Shown here: in pieces, positions 1 to 12,983 of the stretch
How the letters are laid out: each line of letters opens with the position of its first letter
Numbering within the stretch: the first letter of the stretch is position 1
Source: an uncultured Clostridium sp.
GTDB lineage: Bacteria > Bacillota > Clostridia > TANB77 > CAG-508
Assembly (NCBI GenBank): GCA_947088765.1
Contig: CAMUHU010000049.1
Coordinates: 1-12,983, forward strand
DNA length: 12,983 nucleotides
Reading direction: 5' to 3'
Position numbers and translations under genes: made by a program
The notes under the pieces: model-generated
What the model was told of the DNA's origin: nothing
The model's database searches: none
Seen by the model: the letters and a program-made list of their open reading frames with translations, nothing else

Positions 1-99
1 ATTAAATATTGCAAATATTATACAAAGCATTATTACTACTAATAATATAATGTTTTTAATTTTTCTATATGATTTTGTTTGTTGATTATTTTTATTCAT
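1..99 (-). CDS. Partial ORF, 5' end only, running off the left edge. Basic N-terminus followed by a hydrophobic helix (MNKNNQQTKSYRKIKNIILLVVIMLCIIFAIFN...). Putative small membrane protein of the element.
   Basis: ATG at 99..97 (minus strand) with AGGAA 6 nt upstream. A good sigmaA-type promoter lies at 165-193 on the same strand. The frame stays open to the window edge. It is too short to appear in the ORF track. Confidence 0.4.
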   Translation of the reverse strand, partial: MNKNNQQTKSYRKIKNIILLVVIMLCIIFAIFN

Positions 100-164
100 A
101 TCTCATTCCTTATAAATATATTTTTGCAGTAAATCACCTATATGTTTATTTACTATTTGTATTT

Positions 165-193
165 ATTGTATCACTTAATATAAAATTATTCAA
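165..193 (-). promoter_or_regulatory. SigmaA-type promoter TTGAAT-N17-TACAAT with an extended -10 (TGa), reading leftward.
   Basis: The minus strand reads TTGAAT (193..188), a 17-nt spacer ending in TGA, then TACAAT (170..165). It lies about 60 nt upstream of the ATG at 99. Confidence 0.45.
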
Positions 194-351
194 TTAGCAA
201 AAATGATAACCTTATGGAGGCGATAAATTTTTTATTTTTCCTTTCCTCAATTTTACTTTTTATGTTTGGGTAAAAATTAATATATATTATAAAATACCTA
301 GATAGGTATGTTTATTAAAAACTTAATATAAAAAAACAAAGTTAATAATTT

Positions 352-367
352 AAAAGGCTTGCCTTTT
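352..367. terminator. Short hairpin AAAAGGC-tt-GCCTTTT flanked by A/T runs on both sides; possible bidirectional terminator.
   Basis: Perfect 7-nt arms read directly from the sequence, followed by TTTTATTTG. No adjacent gene can be assigned. Confidence 0.3.
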
Positions 368-501
368 ATTTGTTAAAGGTGTTATGTATTAACACTTTCC
401 TGCGTAAAATATAAAATCAAAAAATCTGAAATAGTACATTTCAAAAATATTTCAAAACGATTTCATTGTTTTAAGCTATTAAGCATTTATAATAATAGTA
501 T

Positions 502-531
502 AGAAGAAAGCACGTTTTCTTCTATTTTTTT
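502..531 (+). terminator. Hairpin AGAAGAAA-gcacgt-TTTCTTCT followed by A+T7. Either an intrinsic-terminator-like element or a 5' stem of the downstream transcript.
   Basis: 8-bp stem at 502-509/516-523 and a T-run at 525-531. A weak TTGTTT-N15-TATAAT (467-493) lies just upstream, so the role is ambiguous. Confidence 0.35.
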
Positions 532-565
532 ATTCACTTAATATACATTTAAAGAGGCGATTTAT

Positions 566-709
566 ATGTTAGTAGAAGAATACATATTAGGCAATACTAA
601 GATAAAATTTTATGATGATTATATAGTAAAAGATGTTGCTACTCAAAAAGAATATATAGATAATATTATCATTAATTTAATAAGAAAAATAAATCCTTCT
701 TTGTTGTAA
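566..709 (+). CDS. 47-aa hypothetical protein (MLVEEYILGNTKIKFYDDYIVKDVATQKEYIDNIIINLIRKINPSLL) just upstream of the recombinase gene.
   Basis: ATG at 566 with AGAGG 8 nt upstream (553-557); TAA at 707-709. Same strand as the recombinase, 158 nt upstream of it. No family was recognised with confidence. Confidence 0.45.
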   Translation: MLVEEYILGNTKIKFYDDYIVKDVATQKEYIDNIIINLIRKINPSLL

Positions 710-758
710 TTTGTTGCAATTACAGATATAATTTATATCATAGTTAAAGGCAGTGCAA

Positions 759-814
759 GATACTTATGCGTTTTCAAGGATACAAAATGCTAAAGCATTT
801 TGCATAAGATATCC
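759..814. promoter_or_regulatory. Nested inverted repeats in the recombinase leader: a perfect 20-bp palindrome CAAAATGCTaaAGCATTTTG (783-802) inside an outer GATAcTTATGC / GCATAAGATATC pair.
   Basis: Arms 783-791/794-802 are exact complements. The outer arms 759-769 and 802-813 match with one indel. GGATA (778-782) can alternatively pair with TATCC (810-814). The element ends 45 nt before the recombinase RBS. Confidence 0.35.
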
Positions 815-867
815 GTAAGGTCACTTTGTTCCCAACGGCTATCTTAATTACAAGGAAAGGAGGAAAT

Positions 868-2427
868 GTGCAAGATGGCACATATGCAATATATTTAAGA
901 AAATCAAGAGAAGATATCGAATCTGAAAAATATGGAGAAGGCGAAACTTTAGCAAGACATGAGAAAATATTAACTACTTTAGCTGAGAAGCGAAACCTAC
1001 ATATTTCAAAAATCTATAGAGAAGTTGTAAGTGGAGAAACAATTAGTGAAAGAAAAGAAATGCAAAAACTTCTTAAAGATGTAGAAAATGAAAAATGGAC
1101 TGGCGTTTTAGTTGTTGAAGTAGAAAGACTTGCTCGTGGTGATACTGCTGACCAAGGAAGAGTTTCCAAAGCTTTTAAATATTCTCATACAAAAATAATT
1201 ACACCTGTTAAAACTTATGACCCAGATAATGAATTTGATGAAGAATACTTTGAGTTTGGTTTATTTATGTCTAGGAGAGAATATAAGACAATTAATAGGC
1301 GTTTACAAAGAGGTAGAGAAATTTCTGTTTCTGAAGGTAAATTTGTTGGAAATATTGCTCCTTTTGGATATGATAGAGTAAAGTTAAAAGATTCAAAAGG
1401 ATATACTTTATCTATAAATCAAGTTGAAGCACCTATTGTGAAAGAAATTTTTAGACTATATACTTTTGAAAGTAATACAATAGGTTCTGTTGTAGCACAA
1501 TTGAATAATATGAATTTAAAACCTAGAATTTCTGATGAATGGACTATTTCTTCTGTAAAAGATATTCTTTCTAATCCAACCTATATTGGTAAAATTATTT
1601 GGAATAGAAGGAAACAGAAAAAGAAAACGAAAAATGGACATCTTATCATTAGTAGACCTCGTAATCAAGATTATTTAATTTATGATGGATTACATGAGCC
1701 TATTATTGATAATAAAACTTGGGATTTAGTACAAGAAAAACGAAAGCAAAATACACCAAAAGTAAAACATAGTAGTATTATTCAAAATCCTTTAGTTGGC
1801 TTAGTATTTTGCGAAAAATGTGGCAAACCTATGCAAAGAAGACCTTATACAAAAGCTAGTAAACATGCAACTCTTATATGTTCTAATTCAAAATGTGATA
1901 ATGTAAGTTCTAAACTTTATATAGTAGAAAATAAAATAATTGAAGCTTTAAAAATATGGCTTGAAAATTATAAAGTAGATTATCAAATTAATGATAATTC
2001 AAATGCTGAAAATAATAAGTTAATTGAAAAATCTATTGTTACTACTAAGAAAGAATTAGAAAAGGAAAATGCCAAACTTGATAAAATATATAATTTTTTA
2101 GAAAATGGAATTTATAGCAAAGATGAGTTTATCAATCGTTCAAAAGCTATAAAAGAAAATATTCAAAATTTAGAAAGCAAATTAAATGAATATAGTGAAC
2201 TGTTAAATAAAAACAACGAAATGCAAAATCAAAAAGAAATACTGATACCTAAATTAGAGAATATTATAGATTTATATTATAAACTAGAGCTTGCTGAAGA
2301 TAAAAATGTTTTATTAAAAAGTATTATTGCTAAAGTTACATATTTAAAAATAGACAAAAATCTAAAAAAGGATTCGGATCCAACAAATTTTGAATTGCAT
2401 ATATATCCTAAAATATCTAAAATGTAA
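868..2427 (+). CDS. Large serine recombinase: resolvase-type catalytic domain, recombinase domain, zinc ribbon and coiled coil.
   Basis: N-terminal YAIYLRKSRED carries the Ser nucleophile context, followed by VLVVEVERLARGD and the FDEEYFEFGLFMSRREYKTINRRLQRGR block. PFGYDR marks the recombinase domain. The zinc ribbon is CEKCG...CSNSKCDN, and the tail is K/E/N-rich coiled coil. The preferred start is GTG 868, 4 nt after GGAGG at 859-863; the track's TTG at 826 has no RBS. Confidence 0.9.
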   Translation: MQDGTYAIYLRKSREDIESEKYGEGETLARHEKILTTLAEKRNLHISKIYREVVSGETISERKEMQKLLKDVENEKWTGVLVVEVERLARGDTADQGRVSKAFKYSHTKIITPVKTYDPDNEFDEEYFEFGLFMSRREYKTINRRLQRGREISVSEGKFVGNIAPFGYDRVKLKDSKGYTLSINQVEAPIVKEIFRLYTFESNTIGSVVAQLNNMNLKPRISDEWTISSVKDILSNPTYIGKIIWNRRKQKKKTKNGHLIISRPRNQDYLIYDGLHEPIIDNKTWDLVQEKRKQNTPKVKHSSIIQNPLVGLVFCEKCGKPMQRRPYTKASKHATLICSNSKCDNVSSKLYIVENKIIEALKIWLENYKVDYQINDNSNAENNKLIEKSIVTTKKELEKENAKLDKIYNFLENGIYSKDEFINRSKAIKENIQNLESKLNEYSELLNKNNEMQNQKEILIPKLENIIDLYYKLELAEDKNVLLKSIIAKVTYLKIDKNLKKDSDPTNFELHIYPKISKM

Positions 2428-2532
2428 TATTAATTTTAGCATGTTTCTGTAAGACGGACCACCAATTAATTGTAAACATAAAGTCGAAAAAACCAAAGAA
2501 ATTAAAAGTTTTACGACCTTAGAAGGAAAAAC

Positions 2533-2561
2533 TTGAAAAAATATTCGATGTGTGATACAAT
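2533..2561 (+). promoter_or_regulatory. SigmaA-type promoter TTGAAA-N17-TACAAT with an extended -10 (TGa), serving the ATPase gene.
   Basis: TTGAAA at 2533-2538, a 17-nt spacer ending in TGA, and TACAAT at 2556-2561. It lies 32 nt upstream of the ATG at 2593. Confidence 0.55.
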
Positions 2562-2592
2562 ATAATAAATTAACATGTAGGAGGAAAGAATA

Positions 2593-3801
2593 ATGATAAA
2601 ACGTGAAATGTACCTAAAAAAGATAAGAGATTCATATGATAGTGAATTGATAAAAGTAATTATTGGTGTTAGACGTTCAGGAAAATCAGTATTAATGAAG
2701 CAAATAATAGAAGAATTAAGACAAAAAGGAATAAAAGCAGATCATATAATATATATGAATTTTGAAGATTATGATTATATAGATTTTACAGAACCAAAGA
2801 AATTCAATATGTATGTAAAAGAAAAAATAAAAGATGAGGAAAAATATTATTTGCTTTTTGATGAAATTCAAAATGTTAATGAATTTGAAAAGGTTATTAA
2901 TTCTTTCAGAGCAACTTTAAATGTTAGTATATTTATAACAGGATCAAATAGTAAATTATTATCAGGTGAACTAGCAACACATTTAGCTGGAAGATATATA
3001 AGTATTAAAATGATGCCATTTACATTTAAAGAATATTTAGAACTAAAGAAAGAGAAAAAAGAGGAAATAAATATAGATAAATCTTTTTTAGAATATATAG
3101 AATGGGGATGTATGCCACAAATTTTTAATACAGATAGTTCAGAAGAAAGAAAATTATACCTAAAAGATTTATATAATAGTGCAATATTAAAAGATATTAT
3201 AGAAAGAAATAAAGTTAAAGATATAAATTTATTAAATAGAGTAATTCAATTTATTATGGAAAATATTGGTGGAATAATATCTTCTAATTCAATTACTTCA
3301 TATTTAAAAAATGAGAGAATACAAACAACACCAGATACAATTTTAAATTATGTAGAATATATAACGAATTCTCTAATTGTTAATAAAGTAAATAGATATG
3401 ATATTAGAGGAAAAAATGTTATGGCGACATTAGAAAAATATTATTTAACAGATTTAGGGCTATTGCAGTTAAAAAAGTCTCCGATCGAGAAAAAAATTGG
3501 TGGCAGATTAGAAAATATTGTATACAATGAATTAATTGCAAGAGGATATGATGTGTATATAGGAAAAACTGATAAAGGAGAAATTGATTTTGTAATAGAT
3601 GACTTTGGAGAAAGAAAATATATACAAGTAACAGATTATTTATCAAGTGATGAAGTTATGCAAAGGGAATTTGGAGCATACAAATTTGTTGATGATAATT
3701 ATCCAAAATATGTTCTCTCAATGGATAAAATTAATTATAGCCAAAATGGAATTATTCATATGAATATAATAGATTTTTTATTAGAAGAAGTAAATATATA
3801 A
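2593..3801 (+). CDS. AAA-family ATPase with a C-terminal DUF4143 (nuclease-fold-like) domain (COG1373-type ATP-binding protein).
   Basis: Walker A GVRRSGKS and Walker B-like YLLFDEIQ. The C-terminal GEIDFVIDD...KYIQVTD...REFGAYKFVDDNYPKYVLS pattern is typical of this family. A strong RBS (TAGGAGGA) lies upstream. Confidence 0.85.
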   Translation: MIKREMYLKKIRDSYDSELIKVIIGVRRSGKSVLMKQIIEELRQKGIKADHIIYMNFEDYDYIDFTEPKKFNMYVKEKIKDEEKYYLLFDEIQNVNEFEKVINSFRATLNVSIFITGSNSKLLSGELATHLAGRYISIKMMPFTFKEYLELKKEKKEEINIDKSFLEYIEWGCMPQIFNTDSSEERKLYLKDLYNSAILKDIIERNKVKDINLLNRVIQFIMENIGGIISSNSITSYLKNERIQTTPDTILNYVEYITNSLIVNKVNRYDIRGKNVMATLEKYYLTDLGLLQLKKSPIEKKIGGRLENIVYNELIARGYDVYIGKTDKGEIDFVIDDFGERKYIQVTDYLSSDEVMQREFGAYKFVDDNYPKYVLSMDKINYSQNGIIHMNIIDFLLEEVNI

Positions 3802-3842
3802 GTCAATAGTTAAAGCTGTAATCACTGTCTTTAGCTATTGAC
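3802..3842. terminator. Hairpin GTCAATAGTTAAAG-(13 nt)-CTTTAGCTATTGAC between the ATPase stop codon and the element junction.
   Basis: 14-bp stem with one T:G pair. There is no clear T-tract. The stop codon of the truncated cotJC (3835-3837) lies in the right arm. Confidence 0.4.
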
Positions 3843-4053
3843 AACATAATGGTACACATTCTTCTGTACCAATATCATTTAATATAGCTTTAGCATTTTG
3901 ATCTGGCATTCCAAATCTTTGACTCAAATATCTTAAAGAGGCAGCAAGTTCTCCATCTGGTCCGCCATATTGAGAAATTATCACTTTAGCTAATCTTGGG
4001 TCAGGTGTTTTTATATTTATTGGATATTGTAAAATCTTTTTATAATCCCACAT
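3835..4053 (-). pseudogene. cotJC: cotJC 5' segment (Mn-catalase-family spore coat protein): 65 conserved codons, then 7 unrelated codons and a stop. The gene is split or truncated.
   Basis: MWDYKKILQYPINIKTPDPRLAKVIISQYGGPDGELAASLRYLSQRFGMPDQNAKAILNDIGTEE matches the CotJC N-terminus. The family (about 189 aa in B. subtilis) continues with [LF][AG]HLE, but here it reads CVPLCCQ*. The true ATG is at 4053, 2 nt after the cotJB stop; the track's start at 4083 overlaps cotJB. Confidence 0.85.
3851..3870. repeat. Perfect dyad GGTACA-cattcttc-TGTACC spanning the element/cotJC breakpoint; candidate hybrid attachment site.
   Basis: The right arm encodes Gly62-Thr63 of CotJC and the left arm is element DNA. 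The dyad centre (3860|3861) is within 2 nt of the last conserved CotJC base (3859). Confidence 0.5.
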
Positions 4054-4055
4054 AA

Positions 4056-4376
4056 TTACATAATCCCCCTTTCCCAAGGCCATGGTTCTTCAAGCCATCT
4101 CCATTTTTTACATGGATAATTGGCAGTTAATGGACCATAAACTCTTTGATATTCAGTTTCTAGTTCTCTTAATGTTCTTGAATAATTATTATGCAAACAT
4201 AGAGCCTTAGAGTCATCTGGATGAGTATCTAAATATAAATTTAATTCATCTAAAGCAAAAGAATATTCTTTTATTTGCATTAGCATTTCTCTTCTAGTTT
4301 TATCACAGTCATTTTCATGACAATCACAACAACAATTTCTTTCTTCTACATTGTTTTCACAACATTCGTTATTCAT
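4056..4376 (-). CDS. cotJB: Spore coat protein CotJB with a Cys-rich N-terminal extension.
   Basis: LMQIKEYSFALDELNLYLDTHPDDSKALCLHNNYSRTLRELETEYQRVYGPLT is the CotJB signature. The start overlaps the cotJA stop (ATGA), indicating an operon. Confidence 0.85.
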   Translation of the reverse strand: MNNECCENNVEERNCCCDCHENDCDKTRREMLMQIKEYSFALDELNLYLDTHPDDSKALCLHNNYSRTLRELETEYQRVYGPLTANYPCKKWRWLEEPWPWERGIM

Positions 4377-4738
4377 CCATTACACCCCTCTCCAATATCG
4401 TTAGTATCTTTAATAAAGTTTATAAAATCAATTGATTGACAAGGATAATATGGGTCAACCAATTCAGGGAATATTGTTCCTTTTTTTAATCCAACACAAG
4501 GTACAAAAGTTTTATCCATATGTTGAATAGGAACATAACTTTGAGCAAACATTGGGTTATATGGGAATATATCTCCACAACAGTTATCATCGTCATATCC
4601 ACAACCACAATCATCATTATCTTTGCAACAACAATTGTTTGAAACATCATTACATATTGTTTCATAATCACAAGAATTGTTATTATCCATATTATTCATA
4701 GGACAACAGCAATTACGTCTACATCTACGAGTGAACAC
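4373..4738 (-). CDS. cotJA: Spore coat-associated protein CotJA with a long Cys/Asp/Asn-rich N-terminal extension.
   Basis: The C-terminal AQSYVPIQHMDKTFVPCVGLKKGTIFPELVDPYYP matches the CotJA motif (YVPxQ...GTxFPEL..PY). GTG start at 4738, 6 nt after GGAGGA. Confidence 0.8.
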   Translation of the reverse strand: MFTRRCRRNCCCPMNNMDNNNSCDYETICNDVSNNCCCKDNDDCGCGYDDDNCCGDIFPYNPMFAQSYVPIQHMDKTFVPCVGLKKGTIFPELVDPYYPCQSIDFINFIKDTNDIGEGCNG

Positions 4739-11469: not shown

Positions 11470-12127
11470 ATGATGAAAATAATAAGAATTCAAAATGAGG
11501 ATTATCCAAAAAAATTAAAAAATATTGATAATCCGCCAAAACAATTATATGTATTGGGAAATGAAAAGATATTAGATAATTTTGGATTAGCAATAATAGG
11601 TTGTAGGCAATATTCAGAATATGGTAAAAAAGTAGCAAAAGATATAAGTTTTAAGTTAGCTAAACAAGGTATAAACATTATAAGTGGAATGGCAAGAGGA
11701 ATAGATGGTTTTGCACATATGGGGTGTATGGTAGCAGGAGGAAAAACAGTGGCTGTACTTGGTAGTGGATTTAATAATATATATCCTAAAGAAAATATAG
11801 AATTGCTTAAAGAAATAATAAGAACAGGTGGAACAATTATAACTGAATATTCACCAGACACAAAACCAATAGCAACCAATTTTCCACTTAGAAATAGAAT
11901 AATAAGTGGATTAAGTGATGGAGTAATTGTAGTAGAGGCAAGAAAGAAAAGTGGAACTTTAATAACTGTAGATTATGCATTAGAACAAGGAAAAGAAATT
12001 TTTGCAGTTCCACGGAAACATAAATAATAGTTCTTCACAAGGAACAAATGAAATGATAAGAGAAGGGGCTAAAATTGTAACGAATGTAGAAGACATATTA
12101 GAAGAATACTCTCATATCTGCAGGTAA
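11470..12127 (+). pseudogene. dprA: dprA (DNA-processing protein A, short form) interrupted by a +1 frameshift at about 12013.
   Basis: Rossmann-domain motifs GCRQYSEYG, ISGMARGIDG, AVLGSGFNNIYP and SGTLITVDYALEQGKEIFAVP. After CCA an extra C shifts the frame (stop at 12025-12027). Removing it restores GNINNSSSQGTNEMIREGAKIVTNVEDILEEY, ending at 12127. The second ATG (11473) has better RBS spacing. Confidence 0.8.
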
Positions 12128-12983
12128 ATCCGCTTCTAATATTATATTTTCTTTAGTAATAGGATGAATAAATGTAATTTTATAAGCATGTAGAGCTTGT
12201 CTATCTATTAATTTAGATGAATTACCGTACAGTGTATCTCCCACAATAGGATTACCAATATAATCAGAATGTACACGTATTTGATGAGTACGCCCAGTTT
12301 CAAGTACAAAATGAACTAAAGACAAAGAATTATTAATATTTTTAATTAAATTATAATGAGTTACTGCAATTTCGCCATTTTTAAAATCAACACATCTTTC
12401 AATTATACTATTATCTTTTCTAGCAATAGGTGCAGATATTGTTCCAGATTTCTCTGATAAAGCTCCATCTAAAACAGCAATATATTCTTTTTTGAAATCA
12501 TTATTTTTCATTTGGCGAATTAAACATTCTTGTATATATTCATTTTTTGCAAAAATTACAAGACCGAGAAGTATCTTTATCTAATCTATTAACAATTCTA
12601 ATTTTACGTTTAAGTCCAATAGAATCAAAATAGAATTTTACTCCATTAGATAAACTATCAGAAAAATGATTACAAGAAGGGTGAACAGGAGTATTTGGCA
12701 ATTTATTTATAATTAATAAATAGTTATCTTCAAAAACTATATCTAAATTCATTTTAACAGGAAGAATATTATCATAAGCTTCATCAAAATTAAAATCAAT
12801 AGAAACTATATCTCCAACATTAAGATTAGTATAATTAGGATTTATAGTATGATTATTTAAAAATATTTTATTATTAGCCTTTAAACGTTTTAATAATCTA
12901 TCTGAAATATTAAATTCTTCTTTTAGAATTTGTTTTATATTGTAATATCTATTATCAATTATTTTATATTGTAAATCGTACAT
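12098..12983 (-). pseudogene. RluA-family (RluD-like, S4 domain-containing) pseudouridine synthase interrupted by a +1 frameshift at about 12566.
   Basis: The upstream ORF ends ...VNRLDKDTSRSCNFCKK*. Removing one C (G12566 on the plus strand) gives RLDKDTSGLVIFAKNEYIQECLIRQMKNNDFKKEY..., joining it to ORF 12098-12511, which carries GRTHQIRVH. The ATG lies exactly at the window edge, so the gene may be complete or partial. Confidence 0.8.

Follow-up and report, generated by a model that had tools for sequence, protein, structure and literature searches.

A large serine recombinase cassette interrupts the spore-coat gene cotJC in an uncultured gut Clostridium

Large serine recombinases (LSRs) move compact non-phage elements such as Tn4451/Tn4453 (through TnpX) and SCCmec (through Ccr), and neither TnpX, whose choice of target is relaxed, nor Ccr needs a separate recombination directionality factor (RDF). 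SPβ is a large active phage of about 134 kb which, with the pair SprA-SprB, occupies the mother-cell sporulation gene spsM of Bacillus subtilis; its excision requires a small RDF and rebuilds spsM. The gin element of Bacillus cereus ATCC 10987 (GirC-GirX in gerE) is 28.6 kb long and has three recombinase genes, is presumed to be passed on horizontally although it has no transfer genes, and encodes a GirX of 42 aa that has no recognisable motif (PMC5595907). In skinCd of Clostridioides difficile (CD1231-CD1234 in sigK), a prophage-like element with 19 genes, the LSR is σA-driven and constitutive while the RDF is under the control of σE/SpoIIID, so that excision takes place in the mother cell only; CD1234 is a 72-aa protein, again with no recognisable motif (PMC5025042). 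In every case that we considered and that had been tested by experiment, SPβ, skinCd, gin and yin among them, an LSR insertion in a mother-cell sporulation gene is excised on sporulation. Here we describe an LSR-bearing cassette that interrupts cotJC, a gene of the cotJ spore-coat operon, in an uncultured Clostridium sp.; the stretch of DNA that was analysed, hereafter the window, comprises positions 1 to 12,983 of contig CAMUHU010000049.1 (assembly GCA_947088765.1; 12,983 nt).

That the window holds an LSR cassette inserted in cotJC is, in our judgement, almost certain. The cotJA and cotJB genes, described as intact in an initial annotation made from the sequence alone, are so by the open reading frame (ORF) list, by Pfam and by translation (Table 1): the cotJA stop overlaps the cotJB start, cotJC starts at 4053 (MWDYKK), 3 nt past the cotJB stop, and an in-frame ATG upstream of that start, at 4083, gives an 82-aa ORF (4083..3835). 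The homology of cotJC stops at residue 65, as had also been stated. After NDIGTEE the frame continues for seven element-derived codons (CVPLCCQ) and then stops, the truncated product covers only positions 1-67 of the 284 in the Pfam Mn_catalase profile (E 3e-20), and tblastn with a full-length CotJC from the clade finds no C-terminal segment in any frame of the window. Past the break lie the two genes that had been described there, an AAA_14/DUF4143 ATPase gene convergent with cotJC and a gene for a full-length LSR, identified by Pfam and, for the latter, by alignment with SprA. Because the junction between cotJC and the element is reproduced in one independent sample (L004), and the joint between the LSR and ATPase genes in another (L001), the arrangement is neither a chimaera nor an assembly artefact.

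The same species also provides the empty site. The suggestion that attB could be defined from an uninterrupted cotJC was taken up with an intact allele of the window's own species, P0354, a CotJC of 241 aa that was retrieved with a reconstituted full-length query. Its residues 1-75 are 100% identical to the window fragment and are followed by LAHLEMVGT..., and the contigs that carry it are syntenic with the window, with an AlaX-like gene, spoVT, a comF-like gene, cotJA and cotJB; cotJA is also called in same-species contigs, and the identical CotJB protein is found on six other contigs. In L076 the gene next after cotJC is that of a DUF6512 protein. The empty-site contigs match the window at 98.3% identity over 4,657 bp, and the alignment breaks off precisely at window base 3858 (the T of GAAGAAT), which makes the insertion a presence/absence polymorphism within the species. 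This alignment and the attachment (att) junctions described below bear out the earlier reading of the break as a true insertion by an LSR-bearing integrative element rather than a frameshift or a deletion. The number of missing codons, put at about 120, had to be revised to about 166, owing to a C-terminal extension of CotJC in this clade. Intact cotJC is abundant in the clade when a full-length query is used; the notion that all the closest CotJC relatives are truncated was rejected, as the fragment query had listed only targets up to about 1.75 times its own length.

At the window's attL, a 14-bp core that is common to attB and attP spans the G-T-E-E codons directly before LAHLE, with the host-side arm at higher coordinates, inside the cotJC 5' fragment. 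The element-side P' arm differs from the family consensus by one mismatch, where 0.06 matches would be expected by chance. Comparison of att junctions in more than 15 genomes gives a family attL of ...GATAT[TGGTACAGAAGAAT]GTGTACCATGATGTTGTCAA... and a family attR of ...TTGACAACATCA[TGGTACAGAAGAAT]TAGCTCAC.... Each of the palindromic element arms, TTGACAACATCATGGTAC and GTACCATGATGTTGTCAA, is the reverse complement of the other, as is usual for the attP of serine integrases, and the reconstructed attP is TTGACAACATCATGGTAC-AGAAGAATGT-GTACCATGATGTTGTCAA, with inverted-repeat arms around a 14-bp core whose centre, GA, is non-palindromic. Polymorphisms between attL and attR (for example in L025) bound the crossover to AAGAA, and from the centre of the palindrome we infer that it falls at the GA within GAAGAA; GA is also the crossover dinucleotide of Tn4451. 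A palindromic AT crossover, entertained as the cause of the two orientations described below, was dropped in view of the polymorphism bounds and the attP centre. For the window species, the predicted P arm of attR is TTGACAWCATCATGGWAC and the predicted cotJC sequence past the core is TTAGCACACTTAGAAATGG, with predicted junction sequences ...GGTACAGAAGAATTAGCACAC... for attB and ...CATCATGGTACAGAAGAATGTGTACC... for attP; the predicted attB is in frame and identical to the natural empty sites L075 and L076. Since no attR lies in the window, the element must be at least 3.86 kb long, with its left end beyond window base 1; what bases 1-3857 hold is the right-hand portion of a non-phage integrative cassette of compact build.

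Relatives were collected in a single scan of species-representative genomes. All 21 loci with LSRs 75-96% identical to that of the window adjoin cotJC fragments, and all come from metagenome-assembled genomes (MAGs) of gut Clostridium or Clostridia. Eight of these loci hold a complete single insert, with the 5' half of cotJC, the insert and an intact 3' half in order on one strand (sizes, measured core to core, in Table 1), and L033 (~7500-15030) holds a tandem pair at the same point, hereafter site 1, with a full attP-like site between the units. The prediction that the 3' half would lie past the element, on the same strand and behind the other att junction, thus came true in eight relatives and across the L033 pair. 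As the halves of cotJC are co-oriented on either side of an insert bracketed by attL and attR, excision in these relatives would restore the reading frame, and recombination of attL with attR would yield an in-frame cotJC with a layout identical to the natural empty allele of the species; judged by this arrangement of sites, it is highly probable that the cassette is competent for precise excision. One candidate for a different route, a replacement cotJC 3' end supplied by the element (a match of 1-188 in L017), was discarded as a spurious extension of the alignment, the fragment there stopping at residue 65.

The conserved module consists of a 47-aa ORF, an SprA-family LSR and an att site with palindromic arms, flanked by variable cargo slots, and three blocks of the window are kept across relatives: 523-752 (the 47-aa ORF), 846-2427 (the LSR) and 3801-3861 (the P' arm). 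The LSR has the Resolvase, Recombinase and Zn_ribbon_recom domains of Pfam, all above cut-offs, and its C-terminal coiled-coil region, its length of about 500 aa and the att geometry complete the set of features that define a large serine recombinase. Its nearest solved homologue is the SprA/YokA structure of SPβ (E 1e-47, residues 9-510), and it matches the PHROG integrase family at E 6e-98. No further copy of its exact sequence is on record, and the ATPase sequence is matched only by a 1.8-kb contig. All close relatives whose sequence extends far enough have a small ORF of 42-47 aa upstream of the LSR, as does the family of L008, L014 and L015, whose LSRs are 57% identical; the 47-aa product, which is close to GirX in length, matches no Pfam or PHROG family. 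The σA-like motif ahead of the LSR agrees with the consensus at 10 of 12 positions and is kept in an alignment of 12 sequences. Ahead of the small ORF, the stem sequences of the terminator-like hairpin differ by subgroup yet still pair in the alignment, and diverged families have a CATACA-type box in the corresponding place (CATACATT in L014, CATACACA in L008, TATACATT in the window); the assignment of a sigma factor to this box is inferential. The insert in the LSR leader was considered as a riboswitch or structured RNA and rejected, with no Rfam match and a fold z of -1.9, which is not significant. Window 273-522 is homologous only to L025, L026 and L033.

The cargo of the window element, the ATPase, matches PADLOC PDC-S01 with an E of 1.9e-149 (residues 1-399 to profile positions 10-409 of 412) and is a candidate anti-phage defence gene, the PDC systems of PADLOC being candidates only. 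L021 and L026 have nothing in this slot, and L022 and L029 have different genes there; among the cargo of related elements are ParE, Fic and a PBECR-nuclease-like match that is weak and below the cut-off.

Table 1. Features of the cotJC region and its cassette in the window, with insert sizes and second-site loci in relatives
Feature	Position	Strand	Details
Variable left part, AT-rich (19-20% GC)	1..501	.	Continues beyond the left end of the window
Terminator-like hairpin and T-run (502-533), -10-like box TATACATT (542-549)	502..549	+	Ahead of the small ORF
Conserved 47-aa ORF	566..709	+	Directly upstream of the LSR; candidate RDF (inferred)
σA-like promoter motif TTGTAA-17 nt-TATAAT	704..732	+	Upstream of the LSR; consensus match only
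LSR-leader insert with hairpin	753..845	+	Roughly 95-110 bp; only in the window and L048 (alignment)
LSR, SprA-like	868..2427	+	519 aa; GTG start behind AGGAGG ribosome-binding site
Cargo AAA_14/DUF4143 ATPase	2593..3801	+	402 aa; variable slot, LSR to attL; Pfam, PADLOC
attL core and element-side arm	3838..3871	-	Core TGGTACAGAAGAAT 3871..3858; P' arm GTGTACCATTATGTTGTCAA 3857..3838
cotJC 5' fragment	3859..4053	-	Codons 1-65 (MWDYKK...NDIGTEE); Pfam Mn_catalase and same-species allele
cotJB	4056..4376	-	106 aa, intact; Pfam CotJB E 5.9e-28
cotJA	4373..4738	-	121 aa, first gene of the cotJ operon, intact; Pfam CotJA E 2.3e-13
Complete insert, L029			3,333 bp; host closest to the window
Complete insert, L052			About 3.4 kb
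Complete insert, L022			3,699 bp
Complete insert, L025			4,672 bp
Complete insert, L019			5,025 bp
Complete insert, L026			5,110 bp
Complete insert, L024			5,183 bp
Complete insert, L030			11,139 bp
Site-2 locus, L014	10160-13060		
Site-2 locus, L015	8757-~12400		
Site-2 locus, L075	948-~3600		

The point at which the window's cotJC is cut is used by more than one element, and the gene is cut at more than one point. The window's species has another element, a larger one, at this very position (L008-L013, for example L008:9523-19523). It spans more than 10 kb, may be of the integrative and conjugative type, and encodes an LSR of 534 aa that is 57% identical to the window's, a 45-aa ORF, ORFs resembling a helix-turn-helix protein and sigma-70 region 4, a response regulator and a 950-aa SpaA-type surface protein; L002 (2975-3502) carries a variant of it at the same point, and its truncated CotJC fragment, P0001, is found on 23 contigs. 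Strains with this larger element include several (L002, L008, L009, L011 and L013) in which spoVT matches in two frames, with a frameshift near residue 30-37 (for example in the region L008:7123-7675); spoVT is intact in the window, in L003, L010 and L012 and in the empty-site strains. Contigs L003 and L005 stop at the junction or within 6 nt of it, as they would at a branch of the assembly graph, and such ends could come from a mixture of strains as well as from excision.

At site 1, LSR elements are commonly arrayed in tandem or nested (L018, L020, L027 and L033), and arrays of the L033 type resemble the build-up of composite elements at one site. Elements are found in both orientations relative to cotJC, L046 (10001-12006), L036, L043, L014 and L015 being opposite to the window, which more likely reflects an asymmetric core turned round with respect to the LSR gene in those elements. 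In such members, one of which has an LSR 89% identical to the window's, the LSR adjoins the 3' half of cotJC. A second recurrent site in cotJC follows YYTDHGVGL, and a possible third follows FTAAY (P0331, P0338 and P0345). The cassettes at site 2 are about 3 kb long, with a 521-aa LSR, an ORF of 39-42 aa and ParE-toxin or Fic cargo; on the 1.45-Mb contig of L014, an insert of about 2.9 kb (ParE toxin, LSR and 42-aa ORF) is followed by an intact 3' end of cotJC. Some genomes are cut at sites 1 and 2 both, leaving a middle piece of about 40 codons.

With SPβ the cassette shares insertion in a mother-cell sporulation gene and the symmetric arms of attP, and differs in the size of its family (3.3-11 kb), in its lack of phage genes and in its target, cotJC. 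Its tandem and composite arrays at one site are SCC-like; unlike Tn4451 or SCCmec, however, the window family is strict for one cotJC site (21/21), its LSR is SprA-like and no mob gene was seen in it. Like gin (PMC5595907), it is a non-phage element with an LSR, a tiny ORF as actual or putative RDF, an att inverted repeat and a short shared core, but a window-type cassette is three to eight times smaller and has one LSR. It is also distinguished from gin by its target, by its hosts (gut Clostridium MAGs) and by its defence or toxin cargo. As with skinCd (PMC5025042), the host is clostridial, and the order of motifs in the window, with a σA-like one ahead of the LSR and a CATA-type box ahead of the small ORF, is consistent with that system as far as consensus matches go; skinCd lies in a regulatory gene, whereas the window element sits in the gene of a structural coat protein, the loss of which probably has mild effects.

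The reading that we put first is that the cassette, like SPβ in spsM, skinCd in sigK and gin in gerE, on which the following scheme is modelled, may be removed during sporulation. In such a scheme the LSR would be made constitutively, the 47-aa protein would be its directionality factor, and a switching-on of the small ORF in the sporulating mother cell would lead to excision of the cassette and to a cotJC rebuilt for coat assembly; the forespore chromosome would retain the cassette, and occasional excision outside sporulation would give rise to the observed horizontal spread. The insertion lies within the coding sequence, after codon 65, and mother-cell expression of cotJC is known from the literature: cotJ is σE-dependent in B. 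subtilis, and in C. difficile the cotJC homologues cotCB and cotD are σK-dependent mother-cell genes. The precedents of SPβ, skinCd, gin and yin render mother-cell timing plausible and, arguing by analogy with them, we are evenly divided on whether excision would be developmental.

Other points speak against it or are neutral. The element is polymorphic within its species and is not fixed or domesticated. LSR divergence does not follow that of the host cotJC (Spearman 0.11, p 0.49), hosts usually differing more in cotJC than in their LSRs; by this comparison the cassette is one that spreads horizontally. Where cotJC is cut at two or three sites, or holds a tandem array, reconstitution would need several coordinated excisions. 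The 47-aa ORF has no detectable homology to known RDFs, no convincing σE/σK -35 element was found near it, and the σA-like motif of the LSR counts as weak, promoter-like matches in DNA of about 25% GC being not above those in shuffles. Of the att system, the window itself holds only the core and P' arm, with neither attR nor the 3' half of cotJC. A free attP, the mark of a circle, was found neither in JGI metagenome contigs nor in IMG/VR in junction searches that returned 13 attL junctions of the window type, none of these in IMG/VR; a broader pattern search returned only attL-type junctions, its two IMG/VR matches being of a different junction class. Samples in which the window-type element is present include SRR32092171 and SRR31203357. 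In C. difficile, mutation of CotJC-type catalase homologues causes no major coat defect, and in clostridia cotJC is one of several Mn-catalase coat paralogues, so that plain inactivation of cotJC may be tolerated. The spoVT frameshift, moreover, may reflect decay of sporulation in some lineages. Nor do the separated 3' halves of cotJC help: these are intact over 126 codons in 16 of 16 cases, with a median dN/dS of 0.11 that indicates strong purifying selection, and were considered as evidence for reconstitution, but because the elements are horizontally mobile and polymorphic they do not discriminate, recent insertion explaining them equally well.

Much of this would suit an ordinary small integrative element, possibly mobilisable, that uses the conserved and dispensable GTEE-LAH stretch as a landing site, inactivates cotJC, and is excised for transfer with no coupling to sporulation, an account to which we give somewhat less than an even chance. 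It fits with the presence/absence polymorphism in one species and the two other elements at the same site, with the lack of co-divergence between host and element, with the variable cargo of toxin or defence type (ParE, Fic and PDC-S01), with the arrays and the use of both orientations, with a bona fide phage of Paenibacillus larvae that has the same attP arm and core (see below), with the commonness of intact cotJC in the clade, with the frameshifted spoVT of several strains that carry the larger element, and with the mild effect of losing CotJC-type catalases in C. difficile. It fits less well with the precedents considered above, in which experiments found developmental excision of LSR insertions from mother-cell sporulation genes, with an LSR of the SprA type, and with a conserved small ORF that stands where a regulated RDF would be expected and has a CATACA-type box ahead of it; the 16 of 16 intact 3' halves point the same way, though they are not discriminating.

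Mother-cell-timed excision could also be part of something larger, in which cotJC in gut Clostridia would be a multi-site pad for miniature LSR cassettes with toxin or defence cargo, each excised in the mother cell by its own pair of LSR and micro-RDF. We regard this extension as doubtful. If it were true, a coat gene in two or three pieces would be rebuilt by coordinated rearrangements, with the cargo confined to the germline in the spore; the cassettes would be the smallest developmentally excised intervening elements known, and the mobility of defence genes would be linked to sporulation.

In the initial annotation the element was likened to skin, a description that did not hold up; nor is the element prophage-like. 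It is very improbable that the window shows just the integrase end of a defective prophage of the skin kind, tens of kb in length. The window stops short of the left end and so sets no upper bound on size, one relative (L030) reaches 11 kb and the related L008 element of the same species exceeds 10 kb, but the eight complete relatives, of 3.3-11 kb, contain an LSR, a small ORF and miscellaneous cargo with no phage structural genes, the only PHROG match of known function is the integrase, no LSR in sequenced phages is more than 49% identical to the window's, and IMG/VR yields neither a window-type junction nor a free attP. There is nevertheless a connection to phages in the att site. The temperate Paenibacillus larvae phage phiIBB_Pl23 (KF010834.1, L074:3090-3135) has TTGATAACACCATGGTACAGAAGAGTATG... 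directly after its integrase gene, with the same arm and core as the window family, which suggests that this phage integrates into cotJC; and LSRs 44-45% identical to the window's adjoin cotJC fragments in Paenibacillus lacisoli and Muricoprocola aceti. This type of att site is therefore common to true phages and to mini-cassettes. Least probable of all, and largely refuted, is a gene killed by deletion or rearrangement, or a chimaeric contig, with no functional att system: the 3' half is not seen in the window, but the junction is reproduced in independent samples, the P' arm and core are intact with the exact geometry of the family, the LSR and small ORF are intact, and relatives show the complete, reversible architecture.

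The target itself is not new. A preprint (bioRxiv 10.1101/2021.11.22.469490) names cotJC as a recurrent target of phage or transposon insertion, citing Abe et al. 2013, and Galperin et al. 2022 report a skin-like element that interrupts cotJC in Laceyella sacchari. These earlier cases involve the same gene, but in the accessible sources they are list-level bioinformatic mentions in Bacilli, and the accessible literature on cotJC interruptions gives neither att sites nor the anatomy of an element, and has no examples from clostridia and no case of several occupied sites. Relative to it, what appears to be new is the very small size of the elements, their defence-type cargo, their att sites and the use of several sites in cotJC, as well as their wide spread in gut Clostridium MAGs, including those of human-gut metagenomes. 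Should excision prove to be timed to sporulation, control by DNA rearrangement would reach beyond regulators (sigK, gerE) and a few enzymes to include a structural coat gene of abundant, uncultured gut Clostridium species, and a module of 3-5 kb (LSR, 47-aa factor and att site), far smaller than skin, SPβ or gin, would suffice for it; should excision prove unrelated to development, the cassette would be simply another site-specific mobile element lodged in a gene that the cell can do without. In either case, the family offers a well-defined, strictly site-specific set of SprA-type integrase, attP and attB with many natural variants, and a means by which candidate defence and toxin genes pass from species to species.

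A further class of junction was found in L055, L057, L063, L065 and L069 and in the IMG/VR sequences L072 and L073, which have the same core and P' arm (GGTACAGAAGAATTGGTTCCATCATGATGTCAA) behind a different upstream sequence of higher GC; within the flanks that were fetched, these loci have no cotJC and no LSR of the window family, and the class may represent a related att site in another context. The window as a whole is AT-rich, at about 19-33% GC, and two of its other genes are split. The dprA gene (11470-12127) is frameshifted near 11993-12012 into ORFs of 185 and 41 aa; in L008 it is a single gene of 217 aa, and the split in the window is either a real frameshift or an assembly error. A gene for an RluA-family pseudouridine synthase (12098-12983, minus strand) is split by a 1-nt frameshift inside the catalytic motif, RLDKDTS|GLVIFAKN, and as the same two-ORF split is called in L008 and L010, it is probably real in the species.

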